This document shows, in pieces, positions 35,801 to 63,600 of a stretch of DNA of 64,000 bases. A program made the position numbers and the translations under genes. Position 1 is the stretch's first letter. Each line of letters starts with the position of its first letter. Origin of the DNA: Trypanosoma brucei (taxonomy: Eukaryota); the NCBI GenBank assembly GCA_000002445.1, contig CM000207.1, positions 2,176,001 to 2,240,000 of the forward strand, given 5' to 3'. The notes under the pieces were generated by a model. The model searched no databases, was not told the origin of the DNA, and saw only the letters and a program-made list of their open reading frames with translations.

Positions 35801-38800
35801 CACCTGCGAAGTGAATTACCTTTAATAAGTCAACTACTAAGCCACTGAGATACCAACACATCAACAGCCCGTTATCCTGTAGCGAAACCATAAGCAGCTC
35901 GCAAGGGACCAGCACCACAAGCACTGCATACAATGCAAGGAGCTACAACTGCGGTAGCCCCCATACCCCAAAAAATAAAAAGAGAAGGAGGGAGTCGTCG
36001 GCACCCTAACCTTCGGCGCAAAACTGTGAGCAGCTGATACTTTTAAAAATATATATGTGCTTCGGATTTTTTTTTTCGATCCCTTAATCTATTTAAGAAG
36101 ATTAAAGAGAAGGGCAAGGAATTGCAAACTAAATCTATAATCATCAATACCCATCTGACACAAACTTAGGTGGCAAGCAGCAGCGGAATATTTATTTCAC
36201 AGTAGACTTGTGAAAGGGCAGTTCATGTGGTCCCCAAAAGCCTCGGGACACTGCCACTTACTTTTGTAAGTTAAACTCCTTCACCAACTTTGCGCAGTTT
36301 AACCGTGTGCCTCCGCGGGAGCCGACCGCCAGTTTGGTGACGGAGCGATTAAACGAGTAATTTGTGCTAATGTTGTGGGAATCAAATATCATAAACATCT
36401 CATCCATGGCCACGGAAAGACCGTAGGCTTTTGTGTTTCCTTTTGTTTCCGCGCCTTACAGGAATGTATTATCAACCCAAATGTCAATACTCAGGGGGAA
36501 AGGATTCCACGAATGCTACTGAGGAGAGTCGGATGACACGGGCCTGAGCCTGCATGATAAGAAAAGGGAACTTAAATCAACGACACCACACAACATTACT
36601 TTCACCTCACGGGAATAAAATAAGAAGACATGCCCCAGACCCACAACCCCTCAAAGAGCCATCTGTGACCAAATCAACTGCGGGTTCCCAATTGGGTGTA
36701 ACCGTGCGTTTCTTCTTTTTAAACAGGCAAGAAAGCAATACCCACTTACTAAACCAAGTGCGGACAGTGGCAACAAAGCGGCCTCTGTAGCGGGGACAAG
36801 TTCTCTGTCCGAGGCAAAAGACGACGACGTAACGCCTCTAAGAAAAAACAAAAAAAAACAGACAGAAAAAGTCGACAACTCAGGATAGTAACCGCATAAG
36901 GGTCTTTTGAAACGTGTTCCAAAAGGAACAATTGCCTCGTAAGGTTCATCCGCTTTTGTTATTTCTCTTGAGTCCACGCAATTCACCAGCGACGCTCGTT
37001 GGAGGGTTTATCCTCTGCAATTGAGAAAAGGGATGACCCGAGCTCCTGTTGGTGCGGAGGAGGCATCCTTTAAGATACCGACCTTCCAAAGTAGACGATC
37101 ATCGCCGATGGAAATAACCTGAGGGCTCCTTTCACTGGTCCCTTTTGGTCTCAGTCCGATCAGTCCCCAGAGATGTTGAAATCTACATTCCGCACTCGAA
37201 TTTAAGCGAGAAATGATTCAATATATTTTTTTTTTAGAATTTTCTTCGTGCCTTCGTGAGAGTTTCCCCCCACTGGCGCGGCCATCAGCCATCACCGTAG
37301 AGCCCTGAAATGCTATCGTTCTGGCGACTGTGGCAGAGTCTCCCTTTTTCATTCATCCTAACACACCCTCTATAATTTTTGTTGTATTTCCGCATATGAA
37401 CGGAATACAGCAGATGGGGCGAGAAGCCTCCCACCCTGGACTCTCCCAAAGATGCCAATTGGCAATCCTTTTTTTTCGGAGGTCCACATCACCGGACAGC
37501 AGCATCTTAGTGCGGATGATACTGCTGATGGCACGCTGGCACGTACCCAGGGACCGACAAATGAAAAACGGTGTCCCAGGAAGACGCTGCTGATCCCTGT
37601 GCTGTATGATGCCGTAGCCGGAGCACAGCAGTGTTCCCCATGAAAGGAACTCTGCTGGCTCTTGGCTTCCCCCGATGATACGGGGTACTGGACCCTGGCA
37701 CCACGTTGAGGTGGCCGGCATCGCCAGGGGATTCAATATATCTCCAGCAGCGGGACGCGCACTTGCTGTAAAGGAATGGAAGCCTTGTCCTGCGTATTCA
37801 ACAGGCGTGTGGCATGCGCCCTCCTTGTTATCGTATAACCGTGCGTCTTGAAGGGACAACGCCCTGGCGGCTCCCATGGCTCTTATCCTTCATCTAAGAC
37901 ATGGGTTACATCATAGAGACCATATTCTACATATTAGTCAACATGGCGGTGTATTTGTCCAAGTGGCTGACAGTGTTCCTCGGCAACTGGAACGGATAGA
38001 TGTGCTTAATCAGTTGGGGAATAGTGTGAGGATTCATGCTGTGTTCTTCCACAACTTGTGGCTTCAGCATGCTGTAAAGGCCCCTCTCCTAACGGGGTGC
38101 GTCATCACCTCCCATGAAGCCAGAATGCGTTCGACTTTGGTTGTTGTGAGCGTTGTTACATGTTCCTTGAGCTTCAAAGTGGAAAGTAGTCACGTAATAT
38201 CGAGAGCGTCCTAATCCCCGAATGCGAACTTAACGACCTGCTCGGTGTGAATTGGACTTGGCTGTCTTAGGTGTCACCAACCAATCGAGGAGCGCTACAC
38301 TGTCCCTGTTCCATTGGAAATGCTTCCGTATCCGTGTCGGGATCTCTACCCGACGACTTGTCGTAATCCACACCACACGCACAAACCACACACTCCTTCC
38401 AATCCGAGCAAAAAGTAATAATCTGAGCCATTCCGACCTTTTGTTAAGGGACTCGCTTATTTGATCTCGCTTCTCGCCACAATCTTCCGTAGCCGCAAGA
38501 TCATCACGTCTAACAGTCATTGATCCAACTTAGTCACCGCTACTTGCTGGCCGAGTTGCTTTGCATGTGCGTTAATTTCTGCCAACGCGGATGCGTAATA
38601 CTTATTCATAATGACGCGATGCAAAGCCGACACGCCTTCTCACTCAATGTTTCTCGCTATATTCATCAGCGTAATTAAGGCCTGTTTATTCAGACTGCGA
38701 AACATTGAAGAAACGTAATTTTTGCCATGTGGTTTATCGCGCCAACACCATTCGCACTAAAACACCGCTGTCCGGCTATTGTGTTAGGAGGCTTCTCCCT

Positions 38801-39599
38801 CACAGCTGCTGTGTGCTGTGAGGTTGTGGCGTTAAAGCAAAGGAGATATATTGTGAAAATATTAAAGAAGGGTAACTCGGGGGCATTCAGCTGTAGCTGC
38901 ATACTCATCGGTACATTGCGATGGTGGCCGATGGCTTTGTTGGTAAGGGGAAGATATCACGAAGTTACGAAGAAAATTCTAAAAAGGCAAAAAGGAGAAA
39001 AGGGGAAAATTTTTTGCCACTGCGCCACGGCCGACGCAATGATATTACATGAAAGCCCACACCATTATTGCAAATGGGCAGCTCGTGGAGGGAGTGAGGA
39101 TTGGGATTATTCTAACAGCTTTGTGGTTGTGTGTGCCGTGCTTTTGGAAAATATTGCAACCAATGAAAGGGAAGGCGAGTGTCACCTTACTTTCCATGCT
39201 GCGACATCGACGCATCACGATTATATGCTAGTTGCCCTGCGAGGGAAGGTCGTGAAGGCGAAGGTTAGCTTCCGGTTTAAGGAAGTGTAGAGACTTCCTA
39301 ATACTACTGTCAGAAACTACTGTTGCCGCGTGCTTCAGGCACTGGGTCAGTAATTCATAAATACAACAACGAGAATAAAATTAATCCCTTGTGGCTGCTA
39401 AGCGTGCAAGCAACTGAGAATAATAAACAGTATATTTTTGCCACACTTTATTGATTTCTATATATATACAAAACAACCTCATTACATTTATCATTTCTTT
39501 TGTGCCCAAAGGCTGCTGAATGAATGTTAGGATTACTGACCATAACACATTTTGGCATGCACCTCAATTACTTCCTTATAACACTTCCCCCCCCCCCGT
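32845..39599. promoter_or_regulatory. Divergent strand-switch region between the minus-strand PTU (left) and the plus-strand PTU (right). Likely Pol II transcription start region.
   Basis: Gene orientation flips from minus (all genes below 32.8 kb) to plus (all genes above 39.6 kb). The 6.7-kb gap has no long ORF and carries A-runs, a RIME copy and a C11 polypyrimidine tract just upstream of the first plus-strand gene. Confidence 0.55.
37226..37729 (-). mobile_element. RIME non-autonomous retroposon (about 504 bp). Pr77-like 5' end CCCTGGCGATGCCGGCCACCTCAACGTGGTGCCAGGGTCCAGT, internal A8 at the midpoint, 3' poly(A)10.
   Basis: The minus-strand read starts CCCTGGCGATGCC at 37729, the hallmark ingi/RIME/L1Tc 5' signature. 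A8 lies at about 256 bp in (where ingi-specific sequence is inserted in full ingi). T10 on plus at 37226-37235 gives the poly(A) tail. The first 250 bp is about 85-90% identical to 51349-51595. Confidence 0.7.
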
Positions 39600-39674
39600 T
39601 TGATTCATCGCTTAGCTCTATTATTAAAAAAGAAAAAGCATTTCCTCAACACTCAGCACCTCAAGGAATCGGAA

Positions 39675-42600
39675 ATGGGAACTATAATGTCAGGAAACCA
39701 AGGAAGAAAGCGACAGCGCATCTCATCTCCTGAGCAGTCAGAAGCTTTAAAGGAACCATCAACTACTGAACAAAATAAACTCACCACCGTTACAATCACC
39801 GAAGAGACGCGTGACGCCAGTAATGATGAAACTGTGGTATCGTTACTGAATGAGCATGAGAAATTGACTAAACAAACGACACGGCTGGAAAGCAGTGTGA
39901 AGGCACTTAAGTGTTTCATGAGTAATCTCACAGCTATGAGTGGCGAAAGGCGAGGTGGTGTGTGTGATGACACCGAATGCATACGCGCGGTAACGTTATA
40001 TAATGCTGCTGATAATGCCTTCAGTGACGAAGGACTACATGAAGGTGCTCTTTCCTCACTCTGTGGCCGCATTCAAGCTAAGAAATTAACCATTGCGCTA
40101 TCAAAGGGTTGGAAATTTAACTCACAACGAGTCAGTAAGCTAAAGCAGTTAGAAGAGTTACGCATTGAATATCCGCGTGGCAAACCTGTGAATATGATAT
40201 CTTTGAAGAGACTGCACATGTTGAAAAGGCTTTATCTTAAGAGCAACAATGTTGACAACAATGGCGCTCGTCACTTATTCAATATTGGAACATTGGAGGA
40301 GTTGGTTATTGCTGACACCATGCAACTGACAAATATCAGAGGAATCTCTCGCTTGACTAACCTGATGTGTCTTGAGTTAAATTCCACAGATATTGATGAC
40401 AACTGTGTGGAGGAAATAAGTGCATGTGCTAAACTGTCCAAACTGAGTGTATCCGAATGCAACAATATCACGGATGCAACCCCAATTTCACAACTTGCAG
40501 CGCTTGAAGAGTTGAATCTAAACAGCTGTTACCACATAACGAAGGGAATAGGAACACTGGCCAGGTTGTTACGATTGCGTATGCTGGACTTGAGTAGTGT
40601 TCCTGTGGAAGATAATTGTCTGAAGGATTTGTGTGACTGTGGGTCTCTTGAAAAGCTGAACCTTTCTTATTGTATTCAGCTGACAGATATCAATCCACTC
40701 TCCAATGCCGCTGCTGTTGAGGAATTGAACCTTAACGGTTGTCGCCGAATAACGCGGGGGATGGGCGTTGTGTGGGTATTACCAAAGCTACGCGTATTGC
40801 ACATGAAGGACATGCACCTGAGCGAGCCATCTCTCGATTCAGTTGGGACTGGTGGATTACTTGTAAAGGTCAGTCTTGATAACTGCGCAGGCTTTGGTGA
40901 TATGACACTCTTATCCAGCATTGTTACACTCGAGGAGCTGAATATTCAAAAATGTGCTGACATCATTAGTGGTGTGGGTTGCCTTGGTACACTGCCATAC
41001 CTGCGTGTACTTAACATAAAGGAGGCACACATCTCGTCCCTTGACTTTACTGGTATTTGTGCCTCAAAATCCCTTTTACAGCTCAATATGGAGAGTATCA
41101 CGGGACTGAGTAATGTGGAAGCACTCGCCAACATTTTGACTCTGGAAAAACTAAGCCTTCACGGCTGCACGGGTATTGACGCAGGAATTGGATGTCTCGG
41201 AAACCCGCCACAGCTTAAAATGTTGGACCTGTCTGGCACAAATACCGACAATGAGTCTCTCAGAAGTTTATGCCTATCGCAGACAATGGTGTCCCTCAAC
41301 CTTTCCCATTGTTGGAAAATGACAAATGTGTCCCATATTTCAAGCCTCGAAGCATTGAATGAACTGAATCTGAGCAACTGTTTTGGAATAAATGCAGGAT
41401 GGGAAGCACTTGAAAAACTTCAGCAGCTACATGTGGCAATCCTCTCGAATACACATATTGCTGACGGAGACATATCCCATTTCAGCAAGTACCAAAACCT
41501 TGTTACGCTTGATCTTTCTTTCTGCGATAAGTTACTTGATGTTACAGCTCTCTCTAACATCACTACGCTTGAGGAGTTGAATCTTGATAGTTGTTCAAAC
41601 ATCAGAAAAGGGCTGAGCGTTCTTGGAGAGTTGCCACGGCTTTGTGTGTTGAACATAACGGGTGTGCACTTGAAAGATTCAGTTATTGGTTCACTAGGGA
41701 ATGGTAAATCACTTGTAAGGCTCAGTCTTGAGAATTGCAAAGGGTTTGGTGATGTCAAGACCCTCTTGAACCTTGTTACACTTGAGGAACTGAATCTCCA
41801 CTACTGTGACAAAGTAACCTCTGGAATGGGAACACTGGGCAGCCTACCGCAGCTTCGTGTACTGGATTTGGGACGGACACAAGCTGATAATAATTCCCTT
41901 GAGAATATCTGCACAAGCTCAATCCCACTTGTATCATTAAATCTTTCGCATTGCAAGAAAATAACATCTATTTCTGCAATAGCCTCCCTTACGGCATTGG
42001 AGGAACTCAACATTGACAACTGCTGTAATGTAACATCCGGTTGGAATGTATTTGGTACACTTCACCAACTGCGTGTCCGTACTGTCAAATACACGCATTA
42101 ATGATGAAAACATACGGCATGTTAGCGAGTGCAAGTCTTTGAATACACTCAACCTTGCGTTTTGCAAAGATATAACGAATATCACAGCACTTTCTAAAAT
42201 TACTATGCTGGAGGAGTTGAACCTTGATTGTTGCCCTAACATCATAAAAAGTATTGAAACTCTTGGAACGCTTCCCAAGGCACGTATCCTAAGCATGAGG
42301 GAATGTCAAATTGGAGACAGTGATGCACAACAATGTTCCATCCTTGGGAATAGTAAGTCACTTGTGAAACTGAATCTTGAGAGGTCAAGGGGGCGCATAT
42401 CTGTGAAAGTTCTGTCTAACGTTGCAACGTTGGAGGAATTGGTACTTGATCATTTACAGGAAGTATGTTGCATACCGTCATTTTCCTGTCTACCGCATCT
42501 TCGAGTACTGAATCTGAAATATACGGATATCAATGGTGATGTAACTAAAAATATTTCCGATTCGAAATCGCTGCAGTCACTCAACTTATCACATTGCAAA

Positions 42601-43872
42601 TGGGTAACTGATATATCAGTATTATCTTCCTTATCGACACTGGAAGAACTGAATATTAGCGAGTGTGAGCAAATACGAAAAGGCTGGGAGTCGCTCGGAA
42701 AGCTGCCTCTACTACGTGTGGCAATTCTATCTGATACTAAAATCACCGCTAAAGATATAGTTTGCCTTAGCAGTTGCAAAACACTTGTGAAACTAAAGTT
42801 TTTCCGGTGTGAGGAGTTGTCAGATGTTACGGTGGTGTATAAAATTCAATCACTGGAGGAGCTGATAGTTAAGAACTGCTCAGACGGCCTCAAGGGACTG
42901 AATGCTCCTGGTACACTCCCACGGTTGCGTTTTTTTGCTTCTGCGAAATGTGAGAGGTAGTGATATATCTGTTGAATCTATCGGGACGAGCAAATCTCTC
43001 GTGAGGCTTACTATTGAAGTGGGCGAGGACTTAACAGACACAACACCCCTCTCAGATATCACATCCCTTGAGGAATTATCATTGCGGGAATGCGGTGATA
43101 ACCTGGGAGGAGTCGGGACACTTGAGAAACTGCCACGGCTTAAATCGCTGGATCTGGGTTTATCTGATATTAGCAATAGCACACTTAATGATATTTGTCT
43201 GTCTCGATCCATTACGTCACTCAACCTATCCAACAATTATGAACTAACAGACATATCTCATATATCAAACCTTACGGCACTGGAGGAATTGAATCTGAGA
43301 GGATGTTACCACATAACTTCAGGCTGGGAAGCACTTAGCGAATTACCACGACTTCGTGTGCTCAACTTGGTATCCGTCAGAGTTACGACGCGTTACGATG
43401 GATATTATATCAGCAGATGCAAATCCCTCGTCACACTCAACCTTGAATCGTGTGATATGACCGATGCTTCATGTCTTGCTAATATCAAGACACTGGAGGA
43501 GTTGCATATAGGGAAATGCGAGATGTAACGCAGGGGTTTAGTGCACTTTTCACTCTTCCGAGGTTACGCATTCTTGACCTGATTATGTCGCGCATTACAG
43601 ATGAAGATCTCATGGAAATGCAGCTATCCCATACCATTGAGGAGCTCAATCTCTCTTATTGTGAAAATCTTAATGATATTACACCACTTGGGAGAATAAA
43701 ATCTATTAAAAACTTACATTTCCTTTTGAGCTATGATGCCAGAAGGCTCAGAGAAGAAGGATTCAGAAGTCTTTTGGAATTGCCATGTCTTTCTTGGGTG
43801 GGGGTCAAAAATGCTTATGTCAGTTCCGATATCCTGCGTGAACTGAGAAAAAGGAGGTTACATATCCATTAA
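39675..43872 (+). pseudogene. Leucine-rich repeat protein (LRRP, ESAG8-related LRR family without RING) of about 1,400 codons, disrupted by three frameshifts
   Basis: Four consecutive overlapping ORFs (39600-42101, 42046-42960, 42902-43528, 43516-43872) all carry the same roughly 24-aa LRR (L..L..LEELNL..C..IT.G...L..LP.LRVL.L). The repeat phase continues across each junction only after a frame change: a 4-bp insertion near 42075, a T7 homopolymer at 42930-42936, and a 1-bp change near 43522. Start placed at ATG 39675 (MGTIMSG). Confidence 0.7.
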
Positions 43873-49549: not shown

Positions 49550-51348
49550 TCTATCATATGAGGTTTCAGGAGAACATCACTTCTGCCGCATCGTTAGAAT
49601 TAGGGCACCTAATCAAGTGATGGGTGAATCCAGGGGCACGCAGCGTCATGCGCAACATATCAATATTAGCAATGAAAGTGACGCCGATATCTGTGGTTAA
49701 GAAGCGTGGCACACTGCATGTTTCCCTTTTCAGAAAATAGTAAAATATCATCCCTATCATACGAGTGAGAACATGACGGGAATATCTCTTTCCGAAAAAT
49801 AAATATTCAACCCCCTCATCTAATTTTTTCATGATTCGTCCCTATTCGTAATATGACCCTGCAGAAGCAGGAATACATTAACGCAACACGTTTTGGGGCC
49901 TTTATTTTTCAAAAGCTCATGGCTACGCTCTCTGCATACGTTATTTACCTAAGTATATGTTATTTTGTCTGTATTTTACTGGAGCCCACTGCTACTTCAA
50001 AGGGCGCAGTTACACTAACCCCTTGCACAGCAAAGTGGTGTGTACCGTATTAACTCAACAACATCCATATCAAATATACACGAGTGTGTAGTAACGCTCT
50101 ATTGGTTTTGGGAACTATTATTTTATTTCTTACAATATGATGCCTCAGAGAAACTGAAGGCGAGGGCAGATCCTTTAATCCATCATATTTTCCGTTTTAT
50201 ATCGTATCCATATATGTTTATGACTTTCCCGTAGGTAGTTCCAAGGTACATTATGTATTCTTTCATTTAAAGAATCATTCCTTTCTTTCATATTTGCTTC
50301 TTATTTGACAACAATGAGCAAAAGGTTTTTCTCTCTGACGTTTACATTAATTTAGACACTGCTGTTAGCTGATAAGTTACAGAAAGCCGTACATTTAAAG
50401 TTACACGAACTCACACCGGTCCGAAATAGTAAAGTCTCTAGTATTATTACTTGTTTCTTTATTTGAGAAAAATACGAAAAGCAGCGTCGTGTCTGAAGTG
50501 AGAAACATGTGGCATACATGTGAGATCGGAGGACCACTGCCATTTGAATATCATATCCCAAAATTCTTTTGCTAACATTATTAACTCTGAATGCCTACGA
50601 GATTGTGAAGTGAGCGACCACTGACAGTGAAAACACGAGGATGTATTGTTATCGCCCATGAAAGACACTAGCGCTATTTTGCTTATTGAAAAGCAGAAGC
50701 TCTTTATAATGCCTTTAATCGGCTTGACACAGCAGGTATCACATTTGAAGGAGCAATGAACAAACCGTTACCACACGGAGATATTTTCGTTTACTGATCA
50801 AAAGGTACTCCCGCGACGCATTATTTTTGGTTTACACAACAAGAAGTGCTGTGGCATATGCAACTACTTACTTTTTGCGAGGTTATGTGAGTATATTTTG
50901 GTGACGTATGTAATTTCAATCCGCAGCTGATGTTGCAATGCAGTAATTATCAATGAGGTCTGTCAAGTGGATTCCAAATGGTGAAGCTGTGAGTGAGGAC
51001 GAAGGACTTATTGTCTGCCTCTGAACCGTACACTGCCAAGCACAATTGAATTAGTTTATCATACGACTTTGAAGAATTGCACAAAGTTTCTGGAGCGCAC
51101 TGGAGGCCTCAAGACATTAGCTCTCACGCCTGAAATGAACCGACCCTACTTAAGGTTTAACGGTACGAAACATAATGACATCCTCATGTGGACAGAGGAC
51201 TGGAGAGAGTGGAATGTCTCGAGAAGAGGGCTCTGTACTTGACAGACCCAATGGGATGGAAGAATGGAGGCCGAGCCAGGCCCCTACATTGCGATTGGGA
51301 GCTCTGGTATAGGTAAGTTGCTATCCATTGGTTCGCTTCTCCTTCATA

Positions 51349-51595
51349 CTCTGGCCACGCTGGCCACCTCAACGTGGTGTCAGAGTCCAGTACCCCGTAT
51401 CATCGGGGGAAGCCGAGAGCCAGCAGCGTTCTTCTCATGGGGAACATTGCTGTGCTCCGTCTATGGCATCATACAGCACAGGGATCAGCAGCGTCTTGCT
51501 GGGAAACCGTTTTTCATTTGTCGGTCCCTGGGCACGTGCCATCAGCAGTATCACCCGCACTAACATACTGCTCTGCGGTAATGTAGAGGAGATTT
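51349..51595 (+). mobile_element. 5' half of a RIME/ingi-type retroposon (about 250 bp). No ingi ORF follows, so truncated or degenerate (DIRE-like).
   Basis: CTCTGGCCACGCTGGCCACCTCAACGTGGTGTCAGAGTCCAGTACCCCGTATCATCGGGGGAAGCC... aligns with the 5' half of the RIME at 37226-37729 for about 250 bp, then diverges. The ORFs at 51264-51624 are translation artefacts of this element. Confidence 0.55.
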
Positions 51596-54565: not shown

Positions 54566-55181
54566 CGTTTTATATCTCCTTTTAATACTTTTTGACGTAA
54601 AATGAGACACCTTTCCCTTAACTCGATGAGGGGAAGCTTATTGCGAAAGAGGAAGAAAACTTTGAGACTCTAATAACACAGAAAAGTCAACACTTAATGA
54701 GTATCTGAGGGACGAGTAATAGTCGAAAAAAGATTTTTTTGCTTTGCTTTATTCACATGATTCCCCCCTCAAAAAAAAATAATACCTTATTCAGGGACTT
54801 GGTACTTGCTTGCAATTTAATTTAAGTATTTTGTTTGTTCTTAGCGACTTATCCCGTAAGGGAAGACGCTACTTCAAGTTGGGTGCTCCACACGAATTCC
54901 GAAACGCTAACACAGTGTCGGCAAACTGCGGCAGTTTGTGCATTTCGTTGGAAGAGAGGAAATTCGTCAAAGTTTTAACACCTTGATTGTGCGCGTGAAA
55001 GAGTCGTTGCGAGGGGGAAAATACGGTATCCCCACACACACACCAAAAAACAGTAAGGAAAAAAAAAAAAGAAACATCCCATAAAACATTCTTTTTCTCT
55101 TTCTTACAACTCAAAGTAGACACAGAGCATTTGTCAAAGACATATTCAAACAAGCTAGCATACGATTTCTGCTCTGGAGGG
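54566..55181 (+). repeat. Direct repeat copy 1 (about 615 bp) flanking the oxygenase gene
   Basis: About 98% identical to 57124-57735. Both copies end at CTCTGGAGGG and contain an A-run and CACACACACACC. Confidence 0.85.
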
Positions 55182-55515: not shown

Positions 55516-56499
55516 ATGTATTCTGCTACGCCGTTCATGACACCGCGTGCTTCGTTGCCGGTAATCGATGTCTCGCCATTGTTTGGGGGCGCGGAGCAGG
55601 AGATCATGAAGGTTGCCAAGCAGTTGGATCACGCGTGCCGCACTTCAGGATTCCTCTATGTCGTTGGTCACCCTATTAAACAAGAGCAGATCGATAGGGT
55701 ATTGCAAATTTCGAAAACTTTCTTTTCCCTTCCAATGGAAGAGAAGATGAAAATTGATGTCAAGAAGGGTTTCCTAAAATACAGAGGATATGTCCCCTTC
55801 GGAGCTGAGGAACCAGAGCATGCCAAAACCTACTCATATGAGGCGTTCAACATGGGATATCACCTGCCCCTACACCATCCTGAAGTCATGGCACGGGCCC
55901 CCCTACGCGGACCAAATGTGCACCCCACACAAGTTCCGGAGTGGGTAGACATCATGGAAACCTATTTCCGCGATATGTGGGCATTCATGCTCGTTCTACT
56001 TCGTGCCATGGCGCGAGGTATTGGAATACGTGAAGATTTCTTCGACGACAAGTTCAGCGTACCACAATGTGAGCTAACTGTCAAGCATTATCCCGAACCA
56101 AAAACACACGCGAATGGTAACACTCTGCGGATGGAGCACTCTGATTACGGGATTATCACTATTCTCTACCAAGATTCCACGGGAGGATTGCAGGTCCGTA
56201 ATCCTGACGACAAACTCGTTGATGTTCCACCCATTGAAGGAAGCTTTGTCGTCAACATTGGGGATATGATGGAGATGTGGACTAATGGGCGGTATCGTTC
56301 AACCAAGCACTGCGTTGTGTCCAGAGGAAAGGAACGGTACTCCATACCTTTCTTCTGTAACCCGAATCCGAACGCTTTGGTTAAATGTCTCGACAATTGC
56401 TACTCGGACACTAATCCACCGAAATACCCACCAGTCAAAGCTTCTGACTGGTTGCTGAAAAGATTGGCGGATCTCTATTCTTACAAATCGAAAATGTAA
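55516..56499 (+). CDS. 2-oxoglutarate/Fe(II)-dependent oxygenase of the iron/ascorbate oxidoreductase (isopenicillin-N-synthase-like) family, 327 aa
   Basis: Facial triad HSDYG (H-x-D) ... RYRSTKHCVV (distal His). RYSIPFF (2OG-binding RxS). N-terminal DIOX_N-like region. Length is typical of IPNS-like dioxygenases. Confidence 0.8.
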   Translation: MYSATPFMTPRASLPVIDVSPLFGGAEQEIMKVAKQLDHACRTSGFLYVVGHPIKQEQIDRVLQISKTFFSLPMEEKMKIDVKKGFLKYRGYVPFGAEEPEHAKTYSYEAFNMGYHLPLHHPEVMARAPLRGPNVHPTQVPEWVDIMETYFRDMWAFMLVLLRAMARGIGIREDFFDDKFSVPQCELTVKHYPEPKTHANGNTLRMEHSDYGIITILYQDSTGGLQVRNPDDKLVDVPPIEGSFVVNIGDMMEMWTNGRYRSTKHCVVSRGKERYSIPFFCNPNPNALVKCLDNCYSDTNPPKYPPVKASDWLLKRLADLYSYKSKM

Positions 56500-57123: not shown

Positions 57124-57735
57124 TTTTTATATCTCCTTTTAATACTTTTGACGTAAAATGAGACACCTTTCCCTTAACTCGATGAGGGGAAGCTTATTGC
57201 GAAAGAGGAAGAAAACTTTGAAACTCTAATAACACAGAAAAGTCAACACTTAATGAGTATCTGAGGGACGAGTAATAGTCGAAAAAAGATTTTTTTGCTT
57301 TGCTTTATTCACATGATTCCCCCCTCAAAAAAAATAATACCTTATTCAGGGACTTGGTACTTGCTTGCAATTTAATTTAAGTATTTTGTTTGTTCTTAGC
57401 GACTTATCCCGTAAGGGAAGACGCTACTTCAAGTTGGGTGCTCCACACGAATTCCGAAACGCTAACACAGTGTCGGCAAACTGCGGCAGTTTGTGCATTT
57501 CATTGGAAGAGAGGAAATTCGTCAAAGTTTTAACACCTTGATTGTGCGCGTGAAAGAGTCGTTGCGAGGGGGAAAATACGGTATCCCCACACACACACAC
57601 CAAAAAACAGTAAGGAAAAAAAAAGAAACATCCCATAAAACATTCTTTTTCTCTTTCTTACAACTCAAAGTAGACACAGAATATTTGTCAAAGACATATT
57701 CAAACAAGCTAGCATACGATTTCTGCTCTGGAGGG
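57124..57735 (+). repeat. Direct repeat copy 2 (about 612 bp)
   Basis: Near-identical to 54566-55181. Spacing of 2,558 bp suggests a remnant tandem gene-unit duplication. Confidence 0.85.
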
Positions 57736-60688: not shown

Positions 60689-63600
60689 GATGTCAAAAAG
60701 TCACCCGAAAATGAATATTTGGAAAAAATCAACTGTGGTCAAATCGACATAACGACCACAAAAAATTGTCGCTACGAAGACTTCCGTAGCGCATTTGAAA
60801 GGGCTCGACCAGCCCAATGCATGAGTAACAACGGTTACTGCAACAAAGAGGTCGCCAAAAAATTAGGTGCAGTCGAACCTAATATTTTTTCAAAAAATGG
60901 AAATTTTGAAAAAATTAACCGTGGTCAAATCGACATGACGACCACAAAAAATTGTCGCTACGAAGACTTCCGTAGCGCATTTGAAAGGGCTCGACCAGCC
61001 CAATGCATGAGTAACAACGGTTACTGCAACAAAGAGGTCATAAGAAAAATAGGGGCGGTTGGAAAAGAAAAATGCTCAAAAAATAAGGAAAAAGAGCAAA
61101 TTTCGCAGGCCGACAAAAATGATACACATGGTTTCTACGCAGACTTCCGTAGCGCATTTACACGGAATGGACGAGTAGAATTAGGCAATAACAACGGTTA
61201 TTGTCATAACGAAGCGACAAGAAATATAGAGAGGGGGAAAAAGCCGAAAACATCAAAAATTGATGAAAAAAGGCAAATTTCCAACATTGCAGCTGGTCGA
61301 AAAAGTGATCACTACGAAGATCCGAGTAGTGCATTTTCACGAATTTCAATAGACCATTGCAATGCTCAAATAAAAATTGGTCGCAAAAAAATGGTTAGAA
61401 ACTTGAGGTCATCTGAATCTCAAAAAATTTCAAGGTTCCCAAGGCACCATGGGGAAGGAAAAAAGGTGTCTCCTCCGGCTTTGAACCTGCAGTGGCCAGG
61501 ACAGAAGCAGGTAGCGTCGGCAGTTGCGCCACAAATTAGAAAAATCGCGACACCGAAAAACAACAACACAAGCATCCAACGGAACTGTAGGAAACACCTT
61601 AGGAAAGAAGGTGATTGGTGGATAGTAGAGGGCGGGCAAAGCCACAAGAAAGCCGCCCATACCCCTCTCAAAACGAAACCGGTAAATAAGGAGGGGAACC
61701 GGAAGAAGTACGGCAGACCACCGCGTGAGGTAGAAGGGAAATGGCTTACCTCCCTCATTGCGGCAACGACTGAGGCCGTATTACGCCAACTGGGGAAAGG
61801 AAAATCCCCAACAGCCCACACGAAGTCGAACCAGAGTAGAGTCCCGCTGCAGCACTCTGAGAAAACGGCTAAGGGCATCAAACACGCGACGCCCCAACCA
61901 AAAAAGAAAGAACATGAGCAGCGGAAAGAGCTCCCCCGTCGGCCCCCAACCAAGAGGAGCCACGGCGCTAACAAAGGGCAGGGAGCACCAGTAAGAGCCC
62001 CTACGAAGACACAAGGGAAGGGGGAAGAACAACCCCACACAATGCGAACATGGGCACAGGTGGCAGCACCGAGGAAACCAAAGGTGACAAGTAAACCACC
62101 CATGGCTCAAAAAAAGGCACAGGGGGAAAAGAAAGGGGCAGCGGCCAACCCCTTCCACTGGGAGCTACAGGTGGAGCAGCTTCTCAAGGATGCGGAACAG
62201 ATACGCGAAAGCATGTACATCCGCTTTCTCCACGTTCGGCAGAGTTGGTGGAGCACATGCTTCAAGGCCCACATGGAGTTCCACTGCCCAGTGTGTGGTT
62301 TCGCGCACCCGGAAGAAACCATAACAGTAACACACTGCAGGCAGCAACACCCCCAGGAGGGCCGCCTGATTCCCTACACCCTGACAACAACAGGGAATCA
62401 GGTGCAGTTCGCAGGTCCCTCCTGCTCACTTTCGGCGGTGGTGGCTATCCTCTCACATATGGAGGAAGAGAAAAATTTCCACCCTATTATCCGCCGAAGC
62501 TACCAGTCCCCGAGCAAGGAGACTACCCAAACGCTCGTTCAGGCATTGGGACTGGAGCTCCCCACAGCCCCCATCACTGCGATAGAAGCGCTGGCCCACC
62601 ATGACCAGATGATCCGCCAGCTGTTGGAGGCACCCGCAACGACGGCACGACAATGCGGGCATTGTGGGGTAAGTGAGCTAATGGAAGGGCCTTCCAACCC
62701 CGGGGAAAATTTGGGGATAATCTCCATAAACCCCAACACATGCGAGTCGATCGAGCTGACGAATCAGATCCTCGCGAAGACATATACGACCTCCTGGACA
62801 GATATGGAGGTCGTATGCACGGGGGAACGGAAGAATATGGCCCACCGGCCTACCCCGACGTTGATCACCCACTCCAAGACGTTCGGGGAAATGGTGGTCA
62901 TCGATATTGGAACGTGGGGGAACGAAGCGGTGGGTTTGAAACGCATCCTCCACGAGATCCTGTTACCCCACGGGAACGGCACGGCAACATACAAACTCGT
63001 GGGCGCCGTGATCGCACCAACACCGTTCCACGTGGTAGCGGCAATACCTCAACAGACCAGGAAACGTCGCTGGGATATCCTGGATGGTATGGTCCGCCGC
63101 ACCGTGAGCCAGAGCACTGTCGACCCAAAAACTGTGGTCATGTGCGTGTACCGTCGTGAAGAAGAAGAAACATACGACGTACTAGACGAGGAGGAGCAAG
63201 ACGACGACCTCCTCGGTATCCCCAACCCCACGCCACGGCGATTGATGATATCACAAGCCGGTCCACAGCAAAACTCATGGGTGGACACACGGGGCAGGAG
63301 GGCATACGGCTCACAGGAGGAACAGGATGAGAGGACATCGACAGATCAGGTGAGTATTTTCTCCCACGACGAAACACGGGAGTTATCATCACCACTGGAG
63401 TGTCCTATCGTAGGATGCACCGCGAGTTTCGTGGGCCCACGCAGATGGGAGAAGGCCAAATCCCATATATACGGGTTCCACTCGCTGGAAGAGGTCCGCG
63501 AAATCCCGAGGGGGGAGCTTATATGTAAGGGGATAGTAAGATGCGAGACTTGTGCCACGCTCCTCCCTACGTCGGACAGAGCGAAACAGGCACACGCCGA

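Follow-up and report, generated by a model that had tools for sequence, protein, structure and literature searches.

A frameshifted giant leucine-rich repeat protein copy on chromosome 9 of Trypanosoma brucei, very probably a pseudogene with one lesion common to three lineages

Is the giant leucine-rich repeat protein (LRRP) gene on chromosome 9 of Trypanosoma brucei truly broken, or does the reference sequence hide an intact copy? The question is raised by a stretch of 64,000 nucleotides (nt; contig CM000207.1 of assembly GCA_000002445.1, positions 2,176,001 to 2,240,000, forward strand), hereafter called the window, in which four abutting or overlapping open reading frame (ORF) pieces with leucine-rich repeats (LRRs) lie on the + strand across 39675-43872, in frames 0, 1, 2 and 1 (Table 1). 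All ten tested ORFs of the window (10/10) were found by exact-sequence look-up as TREU927 proteins of the chromosome 9 record of 3,057,547 bp, and the source locus is chromosome 9 of T. b. brucei TREU927. An earlier note on this DNA had left two readings, a recently decayed pseudogene or a sequencing or assembly error, the latter especially at a run of seven T (T7). The comparisons described here make it very probable that the locus holds a pseudogene, a functionless copy belonging to the T. brucei-specific family of LRRPs of about 1,400 amino acids (aa).

The frame is repaired by three small changes, namely the addition of 2 nt after 42076 (junction J1), the removal of one T from the run (J2) and the addition of 1 nt after 43521 (J3). 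The repaired frame measures 4,200 nt, that is 1,399 codons and the natural stop, with zero in-frame stops. The long LRRPs considered were those of chromosome 2 (P0002, P0004), chromosome 1 (P0005, P0067, P0068) and chromosome 11 (Tb11.53.0001, P0075) and LRRP1 (P0003, P0072); intact long paralogues of 1,393-1,449 aa are present on TREU927 chromosomes 1, 2 and 11. The repaired protein is 86-89% identical to annotated T. brucei LRRPs of 1,393-1,448 aa, P0002-P0005 included, at 100% coverage and 72% identical to the chromosome 11 LRRP copy P0006, and its alignment to the intact paralogues P0002-P0006 crosses all three junctions with no internal gaps. A super-repeat of 71 aa, composed of three LRRs, recurs from residue ~137 to residue ~1,343, and its phase is held, with 71 residues separating the LEEL motifs on the two sides of J1 (775, 846) and of J2 (1061, 1132). 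Piece 1 covers the ~135 aa at the N-terminus that lie outside the LRRs, together with the first super-repeats, ~9 in number, and terminates at out-of-frame stops at 42099-42107, while the LRR match of piece 4 reaches E = 1.4e-3 only, below the Pfam cut-off. The frameshifted giant LRRP is a real observation, far beyond chance, and the earlier description of a gene of ~1,400 codons with three small frameshifts, through whose four pieces the LRR phase runs continuously, is borne out.

The main evidence on the nature of the lesions comes from the orthologous loci. A three-way alignment was made of the TREU927 window, the DAL972 locus (FN554972.1, GCA_000210295.1) and the T. b. equiperdum IVM-t1 locus (CM010680.1, GCA_003543875.1), the latter two being syntenic with the window and 98-99.5% identical to it. 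The T. equiperdum OVI contig stops 3 kb upstream of the 610-aa LRRP gene nearby, short of the pseudogene; the Logan contigs that include the 141-aa ORF close by are too short (~1.5 kb) to reach the LRRP, and the LRRP protein clusters had no Logan members. All three separate assemblies, of TREU927, DAL972 and IVM-t1, agree exactly at the T7 run and around it, and each has two private frameshifts besides the shared T7. Neither the J1 nor the J3 deletion occurs in DAL972, and in T. b. equiperdum 1,095 codons can be read without interruption before T7 is reached; truncation falls at codon ~443 in DAL972, ~802 in TREU927 and ~1,094 in T. b. equiperdum. Since DAL972 and IVM-t1 have the same T7 at the corresponding locus, the alignment identifies it as a real lesion, which would be older than the divergence of T. 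b. brucei 927, T. b. gambiense and T. equiperdum. One shared and two private lesions per lineage are the signature expected of a single inactivation followed by independent decay. The comparison with orthologous loci that the earlier note had proposed, in which T7 recurred and the private lesions differed, thus supports its pseudogene alternative.

Each junction can be described from these alignments. At J1, a 4-bp insertion near 42075 had been proposed. The orthologues and the chromosome 11 paralogue have two more bases at this point (GTGT-AG-CCACACTG in DAL972 and T. equiperdum and GTGT-GG-CCGTACTG in the paralogue, against GTGT-CCGTACTG in the window), so that the lesion is instead a net 2-bp deletion after 42076 in TREU927. 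The surrounding patch CCGTACTG in TREU927 matches the chromosome 11-type paralogue, and LRVA[T/V]LSNT stands at this position in all family proteins aligned. A repair of J1 by removal of CCGT was rejected, since it restores the frame but leaves the 71-aa super-repeat two residues short. The T7 run lies exactly where it had been placed, at 42930-42936, and is the sole homopolymer of at least 6 bases in the gene; six T (T6) would restore the frame and encode LRFLLLRNVRG, as in the intact paralogue P0002. At J3, the expected 1-bp change near 43522 was placed after 43521 by the three-way alignment. The window reads GTGT^CCGT, T7 and GCGA^GATG at the three junctions, and the states of an unbroken gene would be GTGTNNCC, T6 and GCGANGAT.

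Errors of sequencing or assembly that mask an intact 1,399-codon gene, which the earlier note had favoured at T7, are highly improbable, although homopolymer runs are classic error sites and J1 and J3 occur in the TREU927 assembly only. The same T7 in the DAL972 and IVM-t1 assemblies leaves the gene broken whatever the status of J1 and J3, both of which lie outside homopolymers and within patches of clustered real substitutions, and two private frameshifts per lineage are more readily understood as neutral decay than as errors that happened to coincide in three projects. As T7 in the TREU927 reference is real, there is no hidden intact giant LRRP at the chromosome 9 locus.

A further explanation, in which T7 is a site of programmed +1 ribosomal frameshifting or of transcriptional slippage, or else a phase-variable ON/OFF tract, has practically no probability. 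A +1 slip of tRNA-Phe on UUU_UUU_U would indeed yield the family peptide RFLLLRN, and T7 with ~600 bp around it is identical in all three lineages. Slippage at T7 cannot, however, restore the product in the presence of two further frameshifts per lineage at non-slippery sites; the 100 nt downstream of T7 fold no better than shuffles (z = 0.05), and the intact paralogue proteins have RFL[L/H]LRN at the aligned position without a frameshift. Programmed frameshifting was rejected on the extra non-slippery frameshifts and the unstructured downstream RNA.

For the pseudogene, the following history is proposed. The founding lesion would be a one-base expansion from T6 to T7, most likely by replication slippage, which would have cut the frame at codon ~1,094 of 1,399 in a common ancestor of T. 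b. brucei 927, T. b. gambiense and T. equiperdum. Each lineage would afterwards have gained small frameshifting deletions separately, sequence patches would still have been exchanged with intact paralogues by gene conversion, and a functional product would presumably be lacking. Of the "recently decayed" pseudogene proposed earlier, the shallowness of the decay stands, with frameshifts only and no nonsense codon, but the founding lesion appears to be older than the lineage split.

The exchange with paralogues is visible in a mosaic pattern. Between the TREU927 and DAL972 coding sequences ~4% of sites differ (170 substitutions), as against ~0.5% in the flanks, so that the alleles diverge ~8-fold more than their flanks, and the differences are patchy, with none in ~42700-43300. 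At 134 of the 145 TREU927-private nucleotide differences one allele has the base of the chromosome 11 paralogue, which is matched by TREU927 at 64 sites and by the DAL972/T. equiperdum alleles at 70. TREU927-private amino-acid states are likewise found in close paralogues (57 of 85) and are clustered, as in KGWKFNS against RDENFDL. The pattern is indicative of gene conversion that took place repeatedly, and in more than one lineage, between LRRP paralogues; such conversion would account for the strong divergence of the alleles as well as for the absence of nonsense codons. It is unlikely that the chromosome 9 pseudogene is in addition an active gene-conversion partner in the LRRP family, comparable to the VSG pseudogenes that give segments to mosaic VSGs; as such a partner it may be a reservoir and recipient of repeat-unit variants, the conserved T7 keeping it untranslated.

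Measures of constraint point to a copy in shallow decay. In-frame stops after frame repair number 0 in three alleles, and dN/dS (the ratio of nonsynonymous to synonymous substitution) is 0.51-0.65 for the chromosome 9 copy, a measure confounded by gene conversion from functional paralogues. Private substitutions, which are confounded in the same way, amount to 59 in this copy and 26-39 in the intact paralogues, and the excess suggests relaxed constraint. A truncated but working LRRP has a low probability; on this reading ORF piece 1 (808 aa in TREU927, 1,095 aa in T. b. equiperdum) would still be translated, with the loss of function confined to the 3' part. Such a product would agree with the intact start codon, polypyrimidine tract and first 808 codons, with the presence nearby of a far shorter intact LRRP (610 aa), with a dN/dS of 0.5-0.65 rather than 1 and with the absence of nonsense codons. 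However, the truncation at codons ~443, ~802 and ~1,094 in the three lineages argues that no common shortened product is conserved, every truncation removes the conserved C-terminal end of the family, and sequence patches acquired from functional paralogues account for a dN/dS below 1.

Several points nevertheless weigh against a pseudogene. J1 and J3 are known from a single TREU927 assembly, and TREU927 is diploid with one haplotype seen. Assembly errors could account for the private 1-bp deletions of T. b. equiperdum, in whose assembly further LRRP paralogues are fragmented too. A dN/dS below 1 and the absence of a nonsense codon in 1,399 codons mark the decay as shallow, and some constraint on the 5' ORF is possible. 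Finally, the pseudogene label for TREU927 is drawn from a missing protein entry and not from the text of the record.

The status of the locus in existing annotation agrees with a pseudogene. The ten tested neighbours and the 141-aa EAN77306 have exact entries in the protein collection, and the four ORF pieces have none; from this missing protein entry we infer that in the TREU927 record the LRRP stands as an untranslated pseudogene. The DAL972 orthologue, P0001, bears the name "leucine-rich repeat protein (LRRP, pseudogene), putative" and the flag LOW QUALITY PROTEIN; its sequence holds two spliced frames, with the out-of-frame text LRFFASAKCER-MLLVHSHGCVFLLLRNVRG. P0001 is the product of the DAL972 gene Tbg972.9.9130, because it agrees with all four (4/4) reference residues tabulated for that identifier (PMC4721075). 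The locus is an ordinary pseudogene that was already known, with nothing new in kind. SNP (single-nucleotide polymorphism) calls and candidate lists that include Tbg972.9.9130 or the chromosome 9 locus (PMC4721075) should be read as pseudogene and paralogous variation. Frameshifts specific to one lineage and mosaics from gene conversion occur in T. brucei LRRP copies, and the significance of the case beyond annotation hygiene is small.

The polypyrimidine tract and the AG that follows it are probably the trans-splice signal of the LRRP transcript; no ATG lies between this AG (39613-39614) and 39675, which is the first ATG after the tract and AG. The C11 run at 39587-39597 is C6 in DAL972 and T. 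equiperdum, and a nearby A-rich stretch differs by 3 bp. The N-myristoylation consensus MGxxxS noted earlier is present at 39675 as MGTIMS and is not conserved across the family: the chromosome 9 orthologues and the chromosome 11 paralogue have MGTTMS, Thr stands where that Met would be in the chromosome 1 paralogue P0005, and for the chromosome 2 paralogues the annotated start is a downstream MSGNQ. Myristoylation does not appear to be a feature of the family, and would be a moot point for a pseudogene.

The genes before ~32.1 kb of the window, among them those for a USP7-like hydrolase, CK2, a cyclophilin-like protein and PMS1, are on the - strand and those after ~38.7 kb on the + strand, and the LRRP locus lies just inside the + strand transcription unit adjoining a divergent strand-switch region. 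The intact 610-aa paralogue that the earlier note had seen nearby is Tb09.211.4980; it has the same repeat architecture and, at 35-37% identity, is a distant paralogue of the chromosome 9 copy. No mention of Tb09.211.4950-4980 was found in the literature searched, in which the other LRRP mentions concern different loci, and an Rfam scan of the whole window gave no match at gathering score.

Several repeats are found in the window. A 196-nt inverted repeat (37537-37732 and 51346-51541, 91% complementary) brackets a 13.6-kb block with the DUF1181 gene, the LRRP pseudogene and the 610-aa LRRP, and the same inverted match is present in DAL972 and T. equiperdum. The iron/ascorbate oxidoreductase gene Tb09.211.4990 (55516-56499) is flanked by direct repeats of ~600 bp (54590-55181 and 57146-57735), which are 98-99% identical at a spacing of ~2,555 bp. 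Both T. equiperdum assemblies (IVM-t1 and OVI) have a single copy of this repeat and are missing the 2.5-kb unit. The T. b. gambiense genome paper treats the same neighbourhood for Tb09.211.4990, whose presence/absence polymorphism has been reported (PMC2854126), and the repeats suggest that recombination between them underlies this polymorphism. A tandem repeat with 2 copies of a 186-bp unit (60708-61084, 88% matches) is positioned just upstream of a 227-aa ORF on the - strand at 61420-62103.

Table 1. Coordinates of the LRRP pieces, lesions and neighbouring features, in positions of the window
Feature	Position	Strand	Remarks
Polypyrimidine tract ending in C11	39571..39597	+	Read from sequence; first AG after it at 39613-39614
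ORF piece 1	39675..42101	+	Frame 0; 808 codons from MGTIMSGNQ; LRR_4, E = 1.3e-30
ORF piece 2	42046..42960	+	Frame 1; LRR_4, E = 3.4e-14; LRRP-homologous part from 42077 to the T run
ORF piece 3	42902..43528	+	Frame 2; LRR_4, E = 1.4e-14
ORF piece 4	43516..43872	+	Frame 1; 118 aa; ends at the natural stop of the family (…RKRRLHIH*)
J1, net 2-bp deletion	42076..42077	+	TREU927-private; frame 0 to 1; orthologue, paralogue and family alignments
J2, T7 homopolymer, +1 insertion	42930..42936	+	Common to TREU927, DAL972 and T. b. equiperdum
J3, 1-bp deletion	43521..43522	+	TREU927-private; GCGA^GATG against GCGACGAG in the other two; frame 2 to 1
DAL972 private 1-bp deletions	Window-equivalent 41003 and 42311/42312		Three-way alignment
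T. b. equiperdum private 1-bp deletions	Window-equivalent 43311 and 43477		Three-way alignment
Tb09.211.4950 (EAN77305), 187-aa T. brucei-specific protein, DUF1181	38727..39290	+	Upstream neighbour; first gene of the + strand unit
EAN77306, "hypothetical protein, unlikely", 141 aa	46210..46635	-	Sole protein record numbered between EAN77305 and EAN77307
Tb09.211.4980 (EAN77307), intact LRRP, 610 aa	47717..49549	+	Exact look-up; Pfam

Other long LRRPs also show irregularities. In T. b. equiperdum (GCA_003543875.1) the long LRRPs P0069, P0070 and P0071 of chromosome 1 are split into a 213-aa N-terminal part and a part of 1,101-1,102 aa, and some of these split LRRPs carry the name "paraflagellar rod component"; they are either further real frameshifts in the family or assembly indel errors together with transferred misnomers. 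The long LRRP of DAL972 chromosome 11 (L010 1501-5701, P0006) has a frameshift near nt 416-444 of the gene. Its gene range of 4,201 nt has no translation to the annotated product, and RefSeq flags it LOW QUALITY PROTEIN; for its orthologues in TREU927 and T. b. equiperdum the annotation gives an intact protein of 1,399 aa. P0006 has Cys at the position of C435G reported for Tbg972.11.1610.

Three known systems can be compared with the chromosome 9 copy. The LRRP family has been described as the source of ESAG8, and ESAG8-type genes are diagnosed by a RING motif and a nuclear localisation signal (PMC3605285). ESAG8 and the chromosome-internal ESAG8-like LRRPs (Tb927.1.3670, Tb927.3.580) are, like the chromosome 9 copy, T. 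brucei-specific leucine-rich repeat proteins. In contrast to them, this copy has LRR Pfam families only and is far longer than the 610-aa LRRP nearby. A basic GRKRQR stretch is present; no RING family was among the Pfam matches of the ORF pieces at E <= 0.01, and an ESAG8-type identity was rejected for want of this motif (PMC3605285). The DAL972 gene Tbg972.9.9130 is the positional orthologue, with the USP7-like hydrolase, the DUF1181 gene and the 610-aa LRRP as neighbours and the same T7; it differs in its own 1-bp deletions and in the ~4% nucleotide difference concentrated in mosaic patches. With the long LRRP family the copy shares the full-length identity of 86-89% that repair reveals to the chromosome 1, chromosome 2 and LRRP1 copies, as well as the build of an N-terminal part of ~135 aa, ~17 super-repeats of 71 aa with three LRRs each and a C-terminal end. 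It differs from these relatives in its three frameshifts, in having no exact entry in the protein collection and in carrying ~1.5-2 times more private substitutions than the intact copies, and on these alignments it is identified as a decayed member of the long LRRP family of T. brucei.

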